From: Cryomorphaceae bacterium
Lineage (GTDB): Bacteria; Bacteroidota; Bacteroidia; Flavobacteriales_D; SKUL01
Length of the DNA: 64,000 nt
Assembly (NCBI GenBank): GCA_007695365.1
Contig: REDV01000092.1
Coordinates: forward strand, 4,844 to 68,843
Direction: 5' to 3'
In this document: one piece after another, positions 1 through 34,952 of the stretch
How the letters are laid out: every line of letters begins with the position of its first letter
How positions within the stretch are numbered: the first letter of the stretch is position 1
Program-made: the position numbers and the translations under genes
Notes under the pieces: model-generated
Seen by the model: the letters and a program-made list of their open reading frames with translations, nothing else
Told to the model about the DNA's origin: nothing
Database searches by the model: none

Positions 1-1919
1 ATTCCTTCGCGCAAGGACTCATTCAATCCGCTGAGGGTCACATACACACGGTCTCTGCTGCTGAACACGTCAAAGTTTAATCCGAGTTTAAAAAACTCTT
101 TTTGAAGGTCTTCTGAGCTGTGCTGCGAGGTGCCCAAATAGGGCAGATAGCTGATGGCCAACGCCATTTCCAAATCGTGGTCGCTACCCATGTCCAGAAT
201 GTAATACAGGCTGAAAAGCTCGTTGTTCTTGTTTTGCACGTGGTACATCTCCAGGCCATTGTCGAGCGTTGCACGGTTGATATCGCGCTGGTAATCTACA
301 AACACCGGCTTGATTCTGCGCGATTCAATAGAATCCCACTGCACATAGAAATTCGACTTCGATTCGCGGTCAATCTCAATGGGGGTGATCTGCGGCTTCT
401 CAACTTTCACAGCTGTATTTTCGCCCATTACCTTGTTAATCTGAACATAGTTCTCACCAAACCATTGGTTGGCAAAGGCTACAATATCGTCTTTGGTAAT
501 CTGCTCCATGCGGTTGAACTCGTTCACTACATCCTGCCATTCCTGGTGGTACACAAAACTGTTGGTCATTTTGCTTGCGCGTGCCCAGTTCGACTCGCTT
601 GCGCGCAATTCGTTGAGTTTCATGTCGCGAATAACCGCTTCAACCATCCAGTCATCAAAGTCGCCGCTTTTAATCAGTTCCATTTGCTCCAGAAGCAGTT
701 CGGCCACTTCGTCGAGTGTTTGCCCGTCGCGGGGATTTCCACTCAACGTGAAGATGGAGTAATCAGTAAAAGAGGTGGGTGACGAAGAAGCGCGAAGTAC
801 CTTCTGGCGCTTTTCGAGGTTGAGGTCAATGAGTCCGGCTTTTCCGTTAGACAGGATGGCATCCATCACGCGCAGCTTCAGTGCTTCTTCGCTGTGAATA
901 CCGGGCAAGCGGTAGGCAATGGTCACAAACTCGGGCTCAACGCCACTTACTTCACGCACGATGGGCTCGGTGATAGGAGCTTCTTCTTCAAACGCAAATT
1001 CCGGAATTTCACCGGGTTCGTAGTCGCCAAAGTAGCGCTTGATTACATCTACCGCCTCATCGGGGTCAATATCACCGCTCAAAATAATGGCCATGTTGTT
1101 GGGCAGGTAGCGCGCAGCGAAATACTCGTGAATCTTCTCCATGGATGGATTCTTGAGGTGCTCGCTGGTACCAATGGTGGTTTGTGTTCCGTATGGGTGA
1201 TTCTTAAAAAGCTCCTCCATCATGGCGTAGTAGGATAGACGGAAGTCACTGTCGAGTGCACGATTAAACTCTTCGTACACTGCTTCAAGCTCAGTGTGAA
1301 ACAGGCGCAGAACGAGTTCGCGAAAGCGCTCGCCTTCAACCATGGCCCATTTTTCAAGTTCGTTGCTGGGGATGTCATTGATATAAACCGTTTGCTCATA
1401 CCAGGTATAAGCATTGGTTCCCTGTGCACCCAAAGATCCAATCATCTTGTCGTACTCGTTGGCAATGGCCAGTTGTGCTGCTGCGCCCGAAATGCTGTCA
1501 ATTTTGGCGTAAATTGCCTTGCGCTGAGCCGGGTCTGTCGTGTTTCGGTGTTCTTCGTAGAGATCTGAAATCTGGTCGAGCAACACACTTTCGGCCTCCC
1601 AGTCTTTGGTGCCGTAGTTCGACGTCCCCTTAAAGAGCATGTGCTCCAGATAGTGGGCCAGCCCCGTTGCGTCGGCGGGATCTTGCTTGCTTCCGGTGCG
1701 AACCGCAATCTGCGTAACCACGCGCGGCTCATCGCGATTTACCGACATGTAGATTTTCAGGCCGTTGTCGAGCGTGTAGATTTTGGTGCCAAGGGGGTCA
1801 CCCTCAACGGTTTTATACTTGTACTTGTAGCGTGTAGTGGTTTCTTTCTCTGTCGGTTCGCAAGACCAAAAGAGCGTCGTAACCAGCAGCATAGCTGCCA
1901 GGTGAAAAATGTACTTCAT
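1..1919 (-). CDS. M16 (pitrilysin/insulinase) family zinc peptidase, lipoprotein-like; 3' end runs off the window
   Basis: Open at the window edge, so it is absent from the ORF track. My translation of the minus strand from the ATG at 1919 gives MKYIFHLAAMLLVTTLFWSCEP...QIAVRTGSKQDPADATGLAHYLEHMLFKGT, with the HxxEH inverted zinc motif (HYLEH) and an LFWSC lipobox-like signal. The frame stays open to base 1. Plus-strand ORFs 120..782, 894..1238 and 1296..1568 are antisense shadows. Confidence 0.85.
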   Translation of the reverse strand, partial: MKYIFHLAAMLLVTTLFWSCEPTEKETTTRYKYKYKTVEGDPLGTKIYTLDNGLKIYMSVNRDEPRVVTQIAVRTGSKQDPADATGLAHYLEHMLFKGTSNYGTKDWEAESVLLDQISDLYEEHRNTTDPAQRKAIYAKIDSISGAAAQLAIANEYDKMIGSLGAQGTNAYTWYEQTVYINDIPSNELEKWAMVEGERFRELVLRLFHTELEAVYEEFNRALDSDFRLSYYAMMEELFKNHPYGTQTTIGTSEHLKNPSMEKIHEYFAARYLPNNMAIILSGDIDPDEAVDVIKRYFGDYEPGEIPEFAFEEEAPITEPIVREVSGVEPEFVTIAYRLPGIHSEEALKLRVMDAILSNGKAGLIDLNLEKRQKVLRASSSPTSFTDYSIFTLSGNPRDGQTLDEVAELLLEQMELIKSGDFDDWMVEAVIRDMKLNELRASESNWARASKMTNSFVYHQEWQDVVNEFNRMEQITKDDIVAFANQWFGENYVQINKVMGENTAVKVEKPQITPIEIDRESKSNFYVQWDSIESRRIKPVFVDYQRDINRATLDNGLEMYHVQNKNNELFSLYYILDMGSDHDLEMALAISYLPYLGTSQHSSEDLQKEFFKLGLNFDVFSSRDRVYVTLSGLNESLREG

Positions 1920-1938: not shown

Positions 1939-3834
1939 TTAAAATATATCCAGGTTCAGGTTTTGAGCCAGTTTGCCAAGGTTGGGATTTTTCTGCACCA
2001 TGGCTTCAAATTTCTTATCAGTGGTCATTAACTTGGTTGGCTGGTTGTTTTGTGAGAGTTCAAAGTCCAGATCAATGGCGAAATTTCGCAACTCCTTGCG
2101 CAGGTATTCCAACATCTCTCCTTTCTCCCGATTCATTTCAATTTCCTGCGCGGCATTGGCGATTTTTAGGGTAATGTGTTTGTTTTCATCCATTACCGGA
2201 GCGTGCAGCGTAAGGCTGGCAAAGAGACTTTCGCGTCCGCGGGCTTTCATCATTTCTGCCAGGTTTCTCCATACGCGCTTCAGGTCGTCCTCACTAAACT
2301 CTTCGCGCAGTTGAGGTTCCTGACTGGCTTCGTCCTCAGCTTCATCTGCTTCATTCGCATCGGGTTCCTGAAAAAGCGAGCCTCCCAGTCCGGCGGTGAT
2401 GGACACCGAGGTTGACTGGTAGTTGCGCAGGATCTTCTTGCGACGGCTTACGTTTTCGGGACTTACTTCGGGGGATTGAGCTGCTTCCGGGAGTACGGGT
2501 CGTGGTTCTTCCGTTTTTTCGGCAACGGGTACTTCCTCGGTTTTGGAAGGGGCTGACGGTTCTTGTACTGTTTCTTCCGCCGGTGGTTTCGGTGTAGATG
2601 CCTGTGGTTCCGGCTGAGGGGCAGGGGGTGCAGGTGAAGCTGGTGATGCGGAAACGGGGGTTGAGGGAGGTGGGGGCTCCGGGGTGGGTGGGTGGGAGGA
2701 GACCCCACCGGATAAATGGCCTGGAGCCGCTTTGGACTCAGATCCTATCTCAAGGTTGTTTTTTTTTTCAACCCCGATGGCGCACATTCGGATGAGGGCA
2801 AGTTCTACAAGAAGTCGTTGGTTTTTGCTTCCGCGATATTGTACGTCTACCTCGTTCAGAATTTCGAGGCACTTAAGCAGCATTCTCACGCTGAGGCTTT
2901 CGCCCTGAGCGCGGTAGCGTTCGCGAATGCGATCGCTGGTTTCAATCAAAATCAGCGTTTTGGGGTTTTTACTCACCATCAGGTTGCGCACGTGCTGCGC
3001 CAAACCCTGCACAAAGTTGTGCCCGTCAAAACCTTTACTTAAAATCTGGTTGTACACCAGCAGCGTTTCGGGAATGTTGCGCTCCACGATAAGGTCTGTC
3101 AGCGAAAAGTAGTAATCGTAATCCAGCACATTGAGGTGCTCAATCACCGCCTCATAGGTGAGGTTGTTTCCGCTAAAACTTACCAGTTGATCGAACATTG
3201 ACAGCGCATCGCGCATCGCTCCATCTGCTTTTTCGGCAATCACGCTCAATCCCTCGGGTTCAGCTTTTACCCCTTCTTTTTCGGCAATTTCACCGAGGTG
3301 ATCGGCGATGTCCAGCACGGTGATTCGCTGAAAATCATAGATCTGACAGCGCGAAAGAATGGTGGGCAGAATTTTGTGCTTCTCTGTAGTGGCCAGAATA
3401 AAAATGGCGTGTGCCGGGGGCTCTTCCAGCGTTTTCAGAAAGGCGTTAAAGGCTTGCTGCGACAACATGTGCACCTCGTCGATGATGTAAACCTTGTGGG
3501 TACCAACCTGGGGTGGAAAGCGAACCTGGTCGGTAAGCTGGCGAATGTCTTCAACTGAGTTGTTCGAAGCCGCATCGAGCTCTAAGATATTCAGACTGAA
3601 ATCTTCGTCTTTATTGATGCCTTTTTGACCAGCTGTGTGCTTGTTGATTTCTCTGGCAAGTATTCGCGCGCATGAGGTCTTTCCCACACCTCGCGGACCA
3701 CAAAATAAAAAAGCCTGCGCCAAATGGTTTTGCTCAATAGCATTGCGGAGGGTATCGGTAATTGCCCGTTGACCAACCACAGTATCAAAAGTTTGGGGCC
3801 TGTATTTTCGCGCCGATACTACAAAATTCTCCAT
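1939..3834 (-). CDS. dnaX: DNA polymerase III subunit gamma/tau
   Basis: MENFVVSARKYRPQTFDTVVGQ..., Walker A GPRGVGKTS, and the clamp-loader motifs DEVHML and SRC. A long Pro/Ala/Glu-rich linker is followed by a tau C-terminal domain. Start moved to the internal Met (track ORF 1939..3864). Confidence 0.95.
   Translation of the reverse strand: MENFVVSARKYRPQTFDTVVGQRAITDTLRNAIEQNHLAQAFLFCGPRGVGKTSCARILAREINKHTAGQKGINKDEDFSLNILELDAASNNSVEDIRQLTDQVRFPPQVGTHKVYIIDEVHMLSQQAFNAFLKTLEEPPAHAIFILATTEKHKILPTILSRCQIYDFQRITVLDIADHLGEIAEKEGVKAEPEGLSVIAEKADGAMRDALSMFDQLVSFSGNNLTYEAVIEHLNVLDYDYYFSLTDLIVERNIPETLLVYNQILSKGFDGHNFVQGLAQHVRNLMVSKNPKTLILIETSDRIRERYRAQGESLSVRMLLKCLEILNEVDVQYRGSKNQRLLVELALIRMCAIGVEKKNNLEIGSESKAAPGHLSGGVSSHPPTPEPPPPSTPVSASPASPAPPAPQPEPQASTPKPPAEETVQEPSAPSKTEEVPVAEKTEEPRPVLPEAAQSPEVSPENVSRRKKILRNYQSTSVSITAGLGGSLFQEPDANEADEAEDEASQEPQLREEFSEDDLKRVWRNLAEMMKARGRESLFASLTLHAPVMDENKHITLKIANAAQEIEMNREKGEMLEYLRKELRNFAIDLDFELSQNNQPTKLMTTDKKFEAMVQKNPNLGKLAQNLNLDIF
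2759..2768 (-). other. A10 homopolymer run inside dnaX: candidate transcriptional-slippage or frameshift site giving a truncated gamma subunit
   Basis: The mRNA reads GUU GAA AAA AAA AAC AAC CUU GAG AUA GGA. The -1 frame gives AAA CAA CCU UGA and the +1 frame gives ACA ACC UUG AGA UAG. The run lies at about codon 356, right after ...LVELALIRMCAIGVE and before the Pro-rich linker. Confidence 0.5.
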
Positions 3835-3971
3835 GTGAACCTGTTGATTTTTGAGGGGAAACAAATATAGCGTTCCCGATGGCTAAATCGGGAGGTGTTT
3901 ATCCCAAATTATGCAATTGGCTCCTGCCATTGCATATTTTCGGTTTAAAACTTACGGCAGCATTGTTTGAC

Positions 3972-11244: not shown

Positions 11245-11589
11245 TTAGTCCTCGAGGAGCATAATGGCCTCCTGCAATTCGCCTAGTGTTTTTGCATCCT
11301 GTTTTTTTTGCGCGATGGTCAATCCGCGGTGGTACACCTTCATGGCCTCGTCTGCATCGCCTGACTCTTCGAGCAGTTTGCCGAGTTGGTAATAGCTCCC
11401 CAGGTAGTCAGGGTCGTGGGCAACGAGATTTTGGAGGGTCTGGAGCGCCCGTTTCATTTCGCCGGCTTTGCGGTATTCGAGCGCAGCGGCGTAGCGCAGA
11501 AAGGAATCATCAGGGTTGGTCTCCAGCATTTCTTCAATCATGCGGAGTCTGTTCCTTGGAATGTCAGAATCGGAGTAAGTGTTTGTCAT
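11245..11589 (-). CDS. tetratricopeptide-repeat protein
   Basis: Start moved to MTNTYSDSD. TPR-like helices are present (AALEYRKAGEMKRALQTLQNLVAHDPDYLGSYYQLGKLLEESGD). Confidence 0.6.
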   Translation of the reverse strand: MTNTYSDSDIPRNRLRMIEEMLETNPDDSFLRYAAALEYRKAGEMKRALQTLQNLVAHDPDYLGSYYQLGKLLEESGDADEAMKVYHRGLTIAQKKQDAKTLGELQEAIMLLED

Positions 11590-20634: not shown

Positions 20635-21195
20635 TCATCTTATCACTTGAATCTCCCCGTTAAGAGCCACTTTTATGATATCGGAAGGTTGGGGAAGCAT
20701 GGTTTCCTGACGTCGCAAATTTACGGCATAATCAACGCCGTCCAAAATGACCTGACCGATGTCGGAAAAACTTTTGGGTGCAGGTTGGCCGCTGATATTG
20801 GCCGAAGTTGAAACAATGGGCACATTGGCCTGCTGAATGAGCTTTTCGCAAAACACATCTTTGGCCATACGAATGGCTACTGAGCCGTCATCGCCCATCA
20901 CTTTTGAAGATACTCCTTTACCGCCGGGGTAAACGATGGTGAGAGGTCGTTTGGCAACGTCCATCAAATCCCACGCAATGGCGGGAACTTCATGTACGTG
21001 ACGATTAATACGGGCGTCGCGCTCAACCAAAAGAATGAGACCCATTTTATTTCCACGGTTCTTGATGTCCAGAATTTTCTGTACAGCCTCGTCATTGGAA
21101 GCGTCGCAGCCAAGACCCCAGATGGTGTCGGTAGGGTAAAGGAGTACCCCCCCCGAGCGCATGCACTCAACGGCTTTTTCTATTTCTTCTTTCAT
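20635..21195 (-). CDS. tsaC: L-threonylcarbamoyladenylate synthase (YrdC/TsaC type)
   Basis: 186 aa. YPTDTIWGLGCDA, RPLTIV and VSTSANISG motifs. Confidence 0.85.
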   Translation of the reverse strand: MKEEIEKAVECMRSGGVLLYPTDTIWGLGCDASNDEAVQKILDIKNRGNKMGLILLVERDARINRHVHEVPAIAWDLMDVAKRPLTIVYPGGKGVSSKVMGDDGSVAIRMAKDVFCEKLIQQANVPIVSTSANISGQPAPKSFSDIGQVILDGVDYAVNLRRQETMLPQPSDIIKVALNGEIQVIR

Positions 21196-22166
21196 GGTGT
21201 TGGGAACTGCTTAGCGTTAATCGTTGTGGCACACTTAAAATGACCTTCCGGACATTGTCCGTGGCCGTGAAGCCCACAGGGTCGGCAATCGAGCTTCTCA
21301 GTAGTTTCAATAACATGTGATTGATCGGATACCGGCCCGAAACCAAAATTGGGCACAGTAGAGCAGAAAACTGCCGCAACCGGGGCGTTCATGGCAGAGG
21401 CCAGGTGCATGGGGGCAGAATCGTTTACGTAGTTCATAGCAGCATATTTCATCAGGGCCGCCGACTGAAGCAACGATAATTTACCCGCAAGATTCACCAC
21501 ATTGTTCCGTTCGCAGTCTTCCGCAATGCGGTTGCACAAATCGCTGTCCGCCGGGCTGCCCAGCAGATAGATCTTAACCTCTCGGTCAATGGTCTGACAC
21601 AATTTTACCCACCCCTCTGCGGGGAACTGCTTCGTAAACCAAACCGACGCCGGAGCTACACATACAAAGGGCTGGCTTCTATATTGCCAAATTACTTGCT
21701 CGTCCTCAGCCGATACCTGTATTTCGGGTCGCGTAAGAGCTAAGTCGTTAGATACCAGTTCGAGGTTTCGTTCAATTTCGTGTTTGCCGTTACCCACTTC
21801 GTGGTTCACTTTTCGCGTGTAGCAAAACGAGAATGGATTCTTGTTGAATCCGACCTTATATCCTGCACCCGAAAACCAGGTGATAAACCCCGAAGTGCCA
21901 AACCGATGCAGGTTGAACACGGCGTCGAACTTTAATTTGCGAACCTTGGTGGCGACTTTCAACAGGTTGAGGTACTTGCCCTCTGTTTTGTCCCACACCA
22001 GTACCTCTTTCACATGGGGGTGGTGGCGCAAAAGCGACTCATTGCCTTTACGCACCAAAAATGAAATGGCAGCATCAGGATAGCGGCTTTTGAGAGCTGA
22101 AAGGATGGGCGTGGCCAATATTACATCGCCAATAAAAGCGGTTTGTATGATGAGTATGTTTTTCAA
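21192..22166 (-). CDS. glycosyltransferase family 9 (heptosyltransferase-like)
   Basis: ILIIQTAFIGDVILATP, and a C-terminal NDSAPMHLA motif typical of GT9. Confidence 0.8.
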   Translation of the reverse strand: MKNILIIQTAFIGDVILATPILSALKSRYPDAAISFLVRKGNESLLRHHPHVKEVLVWDKTEGKYLNLLKVATKVRKLKFDAVFNLHRFGTSGFITWFSGAGYKVGFNKNPFSFCYTRKVNHEVGNGKHEIERNLELVSNDLALTRPEIQVSAEDEQVIWQYRSQPFVCVAPASVWFTKQFPAEGWVKLCQTIDREVKIYLLGSPADSDLCNRIAEDCERNNVVNLAGKLSLLQSAALMKYAAMNYVNDSAPMHLASAMNAPVAAVFCSTVPNFGFGPVSDQSHVIETTEKLDCRPCGLHGHGQCPEGHFKCATTINAKQFPTP

Positions 22167-33831: not shown

Positions 33832-33857
33832 GGCGACCTCTTGGTCGCCTTTTTTTT
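33832..33857 (+). terminator. intrinsic terminator after the M43 protease gene
   Basis: GGCGACC-ucuu-GGUCGCC followed by U8. Confidence 0.8.
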
Positions 33858-34573: not shown

Positions 34574-34952
34574 AAGTCAACGGATTTGTTGTCGGTTTTT
34601 CAAACCAGTTGAGTGTTTTGACATCGTGCCTTCTCAAGGGAAGGAACACCACGGAGGCAACTCCTGAAGTGAAGATGCTGCCCGGTGTAAGTCGGGTGAG
34701 TTGCAAGTTCGGTTCGCCGAAAAAGCAAAGTAACATTTGCGATTGCAGCGAAAGGAGCAGGGTTCGCAAGAACCTGTTCGCATACATGTCTTCGGACATT
34801 GGCGAAAGGCTTCAAAACACAACGCCAGATACGTAGAACTTCGGTTGGACGTTGAAGACAGTAGAAAAGATGATTTGTTCACTTTGCAAACTACGGTTTG
34901 CATGAGTGATGCGGGAGTCCGTTTCTTACGATTCGGACTCCCGTTTTTTTTT
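34574..34952 (+). ncRNA. candidate structured ncRNA A (about 380 nt, unassigned family)
   Basis: No credible ORF. Tetraloop hairpins: 34653..34664 GGAG-GCAA-CUCC; 34758..34776 with a GCAA loop; 34786..34799 AUGUC-UUCG-GACAU; 34832..34851 with a UUCG loop; 34886..34901 GCAAAC-UACG-GUUUGC. Ends in the terminator at 34912..34952. Confidence 0.45.
34912..34952 (+). terminator. strong intrinsic terminator
   Basis: CGGGAGUCCG-12 nt loop-CGGACUCCCG followed by U9. Confidence 0.85.

Follow-up and report, generated by a model that had tools for sequence, protein, structure and literature searches.

The 64-kb (64,000-nucleotide) stretch of Cryomorphaceae bacterium contig REDV01000092.1 examined here, referred to below as the window, carries on its minus strand a dnaX gene, encoding the gamma/tau subunit of DNA polymerase III. 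An unbroken run of ten A residues (A10) in the sense strand of this gene marks the precise border between the clamp-loader core and the part specific to tau. The anatomy of the sequence, its placement at a domain boundary and the conservation of its nucleotides are matters of direct observation, and they suggest with high probability that A10 is a programmed site for production of the shorter gamma form. The main mechanism is likely to be transcriptional slippage of the type described for Thermus thermophilus.

The A10 run and its alternative reading frames

The open reading frame (ORF) of dnaX as called mechanically begins with a TTG codon at 3864. The start was instead taken at the ATG at 3834, giving a protein of 631 amino acids with the A10 run from codon 356, because the N-terminus read from there (MENFVVSARKYRP...) agrees with the invariant MxxFVVSARKYRP that opens 41 aligned homologues. 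The protein is 100% identical to that of a Cryomorphaceae metagenome-assembled genome (MAG; Flavobacteriales, Bacteroidota). It matches the NCBIfam model PRK14971 (DNA polymerase III subunit gamma/tau) over its full length with 735.6 bits, against a cut-off of 685, and the Pfam domains DNA_pol3_delta2, DNAX_ATPase_lid and DNA_pol3_gamma3 together cover residues 22-352. The last of these is domain III, whose final residue is 352. Residues 4-352 align with residues 3-358 of E. coli gamma, the crystallised clamp-loader core (PDB codes 1JR3 and 1XXI; E = 2e-60). Downstream of the run comes a linker rich in Pro (26 of 88 residues), and after it a C-terminal region that is conserved in the alignment of homologues; precomputed matches to the Pfam family PF28557 (DUF8439) were found on DnaX homologues. 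The relevant features are as follows.

1939..3834, minus strand: zero-frame coding sequence of dnaX for tau (631 amino acids, 70.4 kDa), stop codon included; assigned from the ORF, the N-terminus of homologues and the PRK14971 and Pfam matches
2769..3834, minus strand: segment that gamma would have in common with tau, residues 1-355, comprising the AAA+ clamp-loader domains I-III; assigned from Pfam and the 1JR3/1XXI alignment
2759..2768, minus strand: A10 slippery run of the sense strand (T10 on the plus strand), codons 356-359, GAA AAA AAA AAC; read from the sequence
2750..2752, minus strand: TGA stop of the frame entered with one extra A (or two fewer) or by a -1 ribosomal shift, which would end a 361-residue gamma in ...EKKKQP
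2745..2747, minus strand: TAG stop of the frame entered with one A fewer (or two extra), which would end a 362-residue gamma in ...EKKTTLR
1939..2758, minus strand: tau-only part, linker plus C-terminal domain, absent from gamma; assigned from the ORF, composition and homologues

The mRNA at the run reads G-A10-CAACCUUGAGAUAGG, and the zero frame runs GTT GAA AAA AAA AAC AAC CTT GAG ATA GGA (VEKKNNLEIG), remaining open for 272 more codons after the run. The original prediction had placed an A10 run at the gamma/tau boundary, at codon 356 of 631, with off-frames reading K-Q-P-stop and T-T-L-R-stop. Both points stand: the run begins 56% of the way through the gene, four codons past the end of domain III and ahead of the Pro-rich linker, and the TGA and TAG stops that close the two frames start 6 and 11 nucleotides, respectively, after its end. 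A product truncated here would, as predicted from the domain assignments, keep clamp-loader domains I-III and lose the tau-specific C-terminus. The heptamers A_AAA_AAA and A_AAA_AAC occur in frame within the run, and A_AAA_AAG is absent from it.

Conservation and genomic context of the run

Conservation was assessed in 80 dnaX loci from species-representative genomes, with 43-49% protein identity to the query and drawn from Flavobacteriaceae, Cryomorphaceae, Pedobacter, Mucilaginibacter, Sphingobacterium, Chitinophaga, Dysgonomonas, Proteiniphilum and Bacteroides; with 77 metagenome loci these make up the 157 loci of the pooled comparisons. Orthologues lacking a run or off-frame stops at this position had been named as the observation that would speak against the original prediction. 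The prediction withstood this check: a run of 9-11 A's is present at codons 345-387 in 72 of the 80 genome loci (A10 in 62, A11 in six, A9 in four), with stops closing both alternative frames. The loci with a run span Flavobacteriales, Sphingobacteriales, Chitinophaga and some Bacteroidales. In the closest relatives (92% and 64% amino-acid identity), codon 356 again carries A10, and for the former two independent assemblies agree on it.

The run is not tied to one codon phase. Across 73 genes, the window included, it starts at codon position 2 in 57, at position 3 in ten and at position 1 in six, and the encoded peptide varies ([EQ]KK[NKSTIMR], xKKK or KKKx), with the count of A's steady at around ten. 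Since a length of about ten is found in all three phases and the peptide therefore varies, the constraint lies on the nucleotides rather than on the amino acids. In the alignment of 42 homologous proteins, E356-K357-K358 is at least 90% conserved and [EQ]KK is found in 41, with flanks that vary in sequence and length. The longest A-run within codons 335-430 has a bimodal distribution among the 157 loci, being at most six in 43 and at least eight in 114, with seven in none; in a control region of the same genes, codons 100-195, it peaks at four to five. Lys codons elsewhere in these genes are AAA in 71% of cases and AAG in the remaining 29%, so that codon bias does not explain runs of pure A.

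The alternative frames are likewise closed sooner than elsewhere in the 73 genes. With an extra A, a median of one sense codon (at most seven) separates the run from a stop, compared with a median of seven at other positions; with one A fewer, the corresponding medians are five and ten.

A further set of observations concerns the frame that encodes tau. The metagenome scan employed a gamma-only query, so that the ranking of its hits was independent of an intact tau, and 77 loci reached the boundary. Runs of 8-11 A's occur in 42 of these, with tau in frame, as in the window, in 33, gamma in frame in eight, and one ambiguous. In the eight gamma-in-frame loci the zero-frame stop lies 0-4 codons past the run and the long open frame, of at least 205 codons or reaching the contig end, lies elsewhere: in the extra-A frame in six and in the fewer-A frame in two. 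Loci with near-identical flanks can differ in this respect. Among those with runs at codon 363 or 372, two (L139 and L141) combine A10 with an in-frame tau and a third (L142) combines A11 with an in-frame gamma, and a separate pair consists of A9 with tau in frame (L111) and A8 with gamma in frame (L109). These single-A differences could reflect genuine polymorphism or misassembly of the homopolymer; the gamma-in-frame, split arrangement has also been published for complete genomes. Tau is essential, so a flip of this kind can be tolerated only where both products arise regardless of which one the template encodes in frame. A transcript population of mixed run lengths would supply shifts either way, and the occurrence of both directions argues for slippage.

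Several loci depart from these patterns or carry other features at the site. L119 has a frame break at nucleotides ~2340-2360, at GGGAAAATAAATC (A4-T-A3), exactly where relatives have A10, and its tau part continues in a different frame; in L132 the frame is broken past domain III, at nucleotide ~1258, without any run. Misassembly, decay of the site or some other arrangement could account for these two breaks. At codon 372 of L152, A9 is followed one codon on by a zero-frame stop, and the extra-A frame is open for just 89 codons; this matches neither the tau-in-frame nor the gamma-in-frame pattern, and a second, downstream indel is possible. A 373-residue homologue (P0061) was considered as a candidate gamma-only protein and set aside, its zero frame reading through EKK and the protein being simply truncated. 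An exact-flank, variable-gap search of JGI metagenomes for run-length variants of the present species gave no match. Within the 12 nucleotides 5' of the run, GATGGAG abuts A10 in many Flavobacteriaceae (L008-L012, L015, L028-L032, L039 and others), some with GCCTGA on the 3' side. The arrangement GATGGAG-A10(-GCCTGA) resembles the GAGGGAG-A9-GCCTGA of Thermus (Antonov et al., Supplementary Figure S3, PMC3711429), a likeness that could reflect a coincidence of Gly-Glu coding or a shared effect of context on slippage.

The claim in the original prediction that an A10 tract is otherwise improbable proved overstated for the window as a whole. Dinucleotide-preserving shuffles of the window contain on average 1.52 A10 or T10 runs, with one or more in 61 of 100, so that such a run somewhere in 64 kb is not unlikely by composition alone. 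As the count is not significant by itself, weight is placed on the position and conservation of the run. A10 is the longest homopolymer of the window and its sole run of eight or more placed mid-way in a long ORF, the remaining A or T runs of 8-9 being intergenic or at the extreme ends of ORFs.

Other runs of the window include T9 and T8 at 34944..34952, 11302..11309 and 33850..33857, off long ORFs or at ORF edges; the T8 run at 33850 is preceded by a short GC-rich inverted repeat (GACCTCTTGGTC) and resembles the tail of an intrinsic terminator. The one further run of at least eight, C8 at 21147..21154 (plus strand; G8 in the sense direction), lies near the 5' end of a minus-strand stop-to-stop ORF at 20635..21210, of 191 codons. 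Next after dnaX on the same strand is a gene encoding a large peptidase of the M16 family (1..1918, minus strand), and the order dnaX then M16 peptidase recurs in the relatives at 92% and 64% identity (L081-L083, from 2906 or 2910 onward; Pfam Peptidase_M16 and Peptidase_M16_C). The antisense ORFs of the plus strand that cross the A10 run, such as 2716..3042, are without support.

Mechanism and alternative explanations

In the proposed mechanism, RNA polymerase transcribing the T10 template would hold an RNA-DNA hybrid made up entirely of A:T pairs, which could re-pair out of register to yield transcripts with A9, A10, A11 and other lengths. Transcripts with ten (or 7 or 13) A's would encode tau, whereas on those one or two A's off, normally translating ribosomes would enter a frame that closes after two to four codons. 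The off-frame products would be gamma, of 360-363 amino acids and ~41 kDa, consisting of domains I-III and lacking both the linker and the C-terminal domain of tau. The predicted products are listed below.

A10 transcript (predicted): tau, 631 amino acids, 70.4 kDa
A11 transcript (predicted): 361 amino acids, ...EKKKQP
A9 transcript (predicted): 362 amino acids, ...EKKTTLR
A8 transcript (predicted): 360 amino acids
A12 transcript (predicted): 363 amino acids
A7 or A13 transcript (predicted): tau with one Lys fewer or one more

We infer that the shift takes place in transcription rather than in translation, that gamma accumulates and that it stands in some ratio to tau. A ribosomal shift at A_AAA_AAC would be predicted to give ...EKKNQP, so that residue 359, Lys or Asn, separates the two mechanisms.

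Signals of the kind that stimulate ribosomal frameshifting were sought around the run. The 50 nucleotides upstream and 60 downstream were folded in the 73 genes, with shuffle controls, and no consistent RNA structure emerged, nor do the flanks align. In the window the 60 downstream nucleotides fold with -14.2 kcal/mol (z = +0.1 against shuffles), and the mean z over the 73 genes is -0.3. A Shine-Dalgarno-like tetramer lies within 15 nucleotides upstream in 29 of 76 genes, the window having GGGG at -9 to -6, and no conserved upstream motif of this type was found among the 76. A scan of 2400..3100 against Rfam, at E-values up to 10, gave no match to the DnaX frameshifting element. The only hits in this region were two weak plus-strand ones, to the anti-hemB and JUMPstart families, far below their gathering scores and probably due to chance. 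The terminator and promoter scan revealed no terminator-like site. It did return a sigma-70-like promoter at 2771..2742 (minus strand; TTGAAA, 18-nucleotide spacer, TAGGAT) with A10 in its spacer, which was disregarded as probably meaningless, being a consensus-only match consisting mostly of the A-run; to our knowledge, the promoters of Bacteroidota depart from the sigma-70 consensus. A tRNA scan of the 64-kb window found no tRNA-Lys genes that would bear on frameshift propensity.

If gamma were produced through -1 programmed ribosomal frameshifting, the E. coli route, tRNA-Lys together with tRNA-Asn (or tRNA-Lys) would move back one base on A_AAA_AAC or A_AAA_AAA, and translation would end at the TGA two codons on. 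We consider such frameshifting unlikely as the main route, with points that nevertheless tell for it: heptamers of the form X_XXY_YYZ lie in frame inside the run in every codon phase, the stop in the -1 frame is the more tightly placed of the two, at a median of one sense codon past the run, and the terminal codon of the run is AAG in 18 of 73 genes, which can yield A_AAA_AAG. Moreover, a cluster of insertion sequences is cited in which shifting at A_AAA_AAC is proven although no stimulator has been established (PMC4066793). However, a ribosomal shift needs seven bases, whereas ten are conserved and a run of seven is found in no locus; the +1 frame is closed early too; and neither a conserved hairpin nor a conserved Shine-Dalgarno-like motif nor the Rfam DnaX element was found in the searches described above. 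Ribosomal frameshifting without stimulators is expected to be of low efficiency. Relatives would, in addition, need shifts in both directions to make tau, and Shine-Dalgarno pairing is described as rare in Bacteroidia (PMC8710568). Preference for the Thermus over the E. coli solution, already voiced in the original prediction, is thus supported by a length of about ten in any phase, closure of both frames and stimulators not found, and is also backed by the relatives in which tau is out of frame in one direction or the other.

The other explanations do without a shift at the RNA level. The run might involve no recoding and represent a conserved Lys-Lys in preferred AAA codons within an AT-leaning linker, the off-frame stops being incidental. 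The 71% usage of AAA, the compositional plausibility of an A10 in the window and the presence of [EQ]KK in 41 of 42 proteins would all fit, yet this account seems improbable in view of a run length of 9-11 across three codon phases with differing peptides, bimodal lengths with no interrupted or intermediate runs, off-frame stops that come far earlier than under the null, and a lack of conservation in the residues beside the motif. Furthermore, gamma-in-zero-frame variants would then be without essential tau (PMC3711429). Slightly more improbable still is a DNA-level contingency tract, in which replication slippage toggles between a tau-encoding and a gamma-only allele. Close relatives do differ by one A and hence by the product in frame, but the run length is uniform across species (A10 in 62 of 72), unlike the scatter seen at contingency loci, and both assemblies of the 92%-identical relative have A10. 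Essentiality of tau, as stated in a preprint (bioRxiv 10.1101/2022.11.10.516041), would also make the gamma-only state lethal in the absence of rescue at the RNA level. A sequencing or assembly artefact comes to mind given that homopolymers are error-prone and the window matches a MAG. It is the least credible of these explanations, for the ORF is intact through the run and A10 recurs both in independent assemblies of close relatives and in isolate genomes of many genera, for example Flagellimonas, Pedobacter and Aquimarina.

Certain observations nevertheless count against transcriptional slippage as a conserved device. The run is absent from eight of the 80 genome loci, all labelled Bacteroidales or Bacteroidota, and from 35 of the 77 metagenome loci, nine of them from human-gut assemblies, which indicates that the device is dispensable or replaceable. 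The genome loci in question (L044, L055, L063, L065, L069, L071, L072 and L076; codons ~347-430) include Bacteroidaceae, Phocaeicola plebeius, a Bacteroides species and Bacteroidales MAGs; examples from metagenomes are L089 and L093-L100. The longest boundary A-run in these loci is at most six, and no other obvious slippery motif was seen there. Still, the run is present in a locus labelled Bacteroides (L079, A11), in Dysgonomonas (L078, A10) and in Proteiniphilum (L075, A9). It should also be borne in mind that the loci share ancestry, so that counts overstate the number of independent observations, that run lengths in metagenomes may partly be homopolymer assembly errors, and that how Bacteroidota RNA polymerase behaves on A10 is judged by analogy with the enzymes of E. 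coli and Thermus. Finally, the in-frame -1 heptamers A_AAA_AAA and A_AAA_AAC mean that ribosomal frameshifting may contribute. Slippage in transcription remains the preferred explanation, since ten conserved bases together with early closure of both alternative frames would fit an RNA population bearing insertions as well as deletions.

A wider reading can be put forward, to which we give even odds: that a device shared across the phylum, and perhaps ancestral to the Bacteroidota-Chlorobi lineage, mostly takes the in-frame A10 form, with slippage by RNA polymerase setting the gamma:tau ratio. It would entail a length held near ten in any codon phase, repeated single-A flips and loss in Bacteroidaceae-like gut lineages, a history we find equally easy to accept or to doubt. 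On the same reading, the in-frame genes would have escaped the disrupted-ORF screens that found split variants because their tau is in frame. Our incomplete search of the literature revealed no description of in-frame A10 in Bacteroidota or of its prevalence (~90% of sampled genomes). The extension to in-frame genes would not surprise specialists, and the comparative picture, useful as it is, is incremental.

Comparison with known dnaX systems

Among cellular genes, dnaX is one of few with two essential or near-essential products set by recoding, and a textbook case of the same outcome reached by ribosomal frameshifting, transcriptional slippage or proteolysis. What the Bacteroidota comparison adds is a run length under tight selection, an in-frame product switchable by a single base and lineages, including gut Bacteroidales, that have lost the device; the phylum thus offers a natural series for measuring slippage frequency against run length. 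For annotation, a gamma of ~41 kDa should be expected here, and dnaX 'frameshifts' at the run in relatives should not be called pseudogenes.

Taking its sequence features alone, the window site conforms in all respects to a putative Thermus-type dnaX slippage site and departs both from the E. coli frameshift element and from the split two-ORF form. E. coli dnaX makes gamma through a -1 shift at A_AAA_AAG, aided by an upstream Shine-Dalgarno-like element and a downstream stem-loop. The gene, the outcome, the A-rich Lys site and the nearby stop are shared with the window, but here the AAG-ending heptamer, the hairpin and the Rfam match are lacking, the Shine-Dalgarno-like element is unconserved, the +1 frame is also closed and the site lies ~70 codons closer to domain III. 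In E. coli genes, AAAAAAA and UUUUUUU are rarer than expected in each of the three frames, and transcriptional slippage or indel mutation has been suggested as a possible cause (PMC4066793). In Caulobacter crescentus the same gene again gives a shortened gamma, this time through post-translational proteolysis by ClpXP without a nucleic-acid signal, as described in the preprint (bioRxiv 10.1101/2022.11.10.516041) that also names tau as the essential form.

In Thermus thermophilus, slippage on an A9 run yields mRNAs of varying A number and a gamma:tau ratio of ~1:1, with stops near the run in both non-zero frames (Larsen et al. 2000, cited through PMC1088944 and PMC5009743); on runs of nine A's or T's, bacterial RNA polymerase adds up to six extra nucleotides (PMC5009743). 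The window site resembles this system in its poly-A run and in the closure of both off-frames, and some orthologues share the GGAG-A(n)-GCCTGA context. It differs in having A10 rather than A9, in belonging to a mesophilic member of the Bacteroidota with ~48% GC and in the position of the run right after domain III. Slippage has been shown experimentally in Thermus, whereas here it is proposed from sequence. If confirmed, the novelty would be a tau-in-frame member of the Thermus class in another phylum, the principle being already known.

The closest precedents are the 17 dnaX genes split in two ORFs that were reported by Antonov et al. in 2013, nine of them with A10 aligning to the Thermus motif (PMC3711429). 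The split A10 genes of their Supplementary Figure S3 come from Flavobacterium johnsoniae, F. psychrophilum, Cytophaga hutchinsonii, Capnocytophaga ochracea, several Chlorobi and Coraliomargarita (PMC3711429). Those authors proposed the same mechanism with roles reversed, tau needing the slip, and took bidirectional shifts as a criterion for transcriptional realignment (PMC3711429). Disrupted-ORF screens are, as Sharma et al. pointed out in 2014, blind where the shifted product is the shorter one (PMC4066793). The split genes share with the window the boundary, the poly-A motif and the proposed programmed transcriptional realignment and, in four cases, the phylum. In the split genes gamma occupies the zero frame and tau is made by slipping, whereas in the window tau occupies the zero frame and gamma would be made by slipping.

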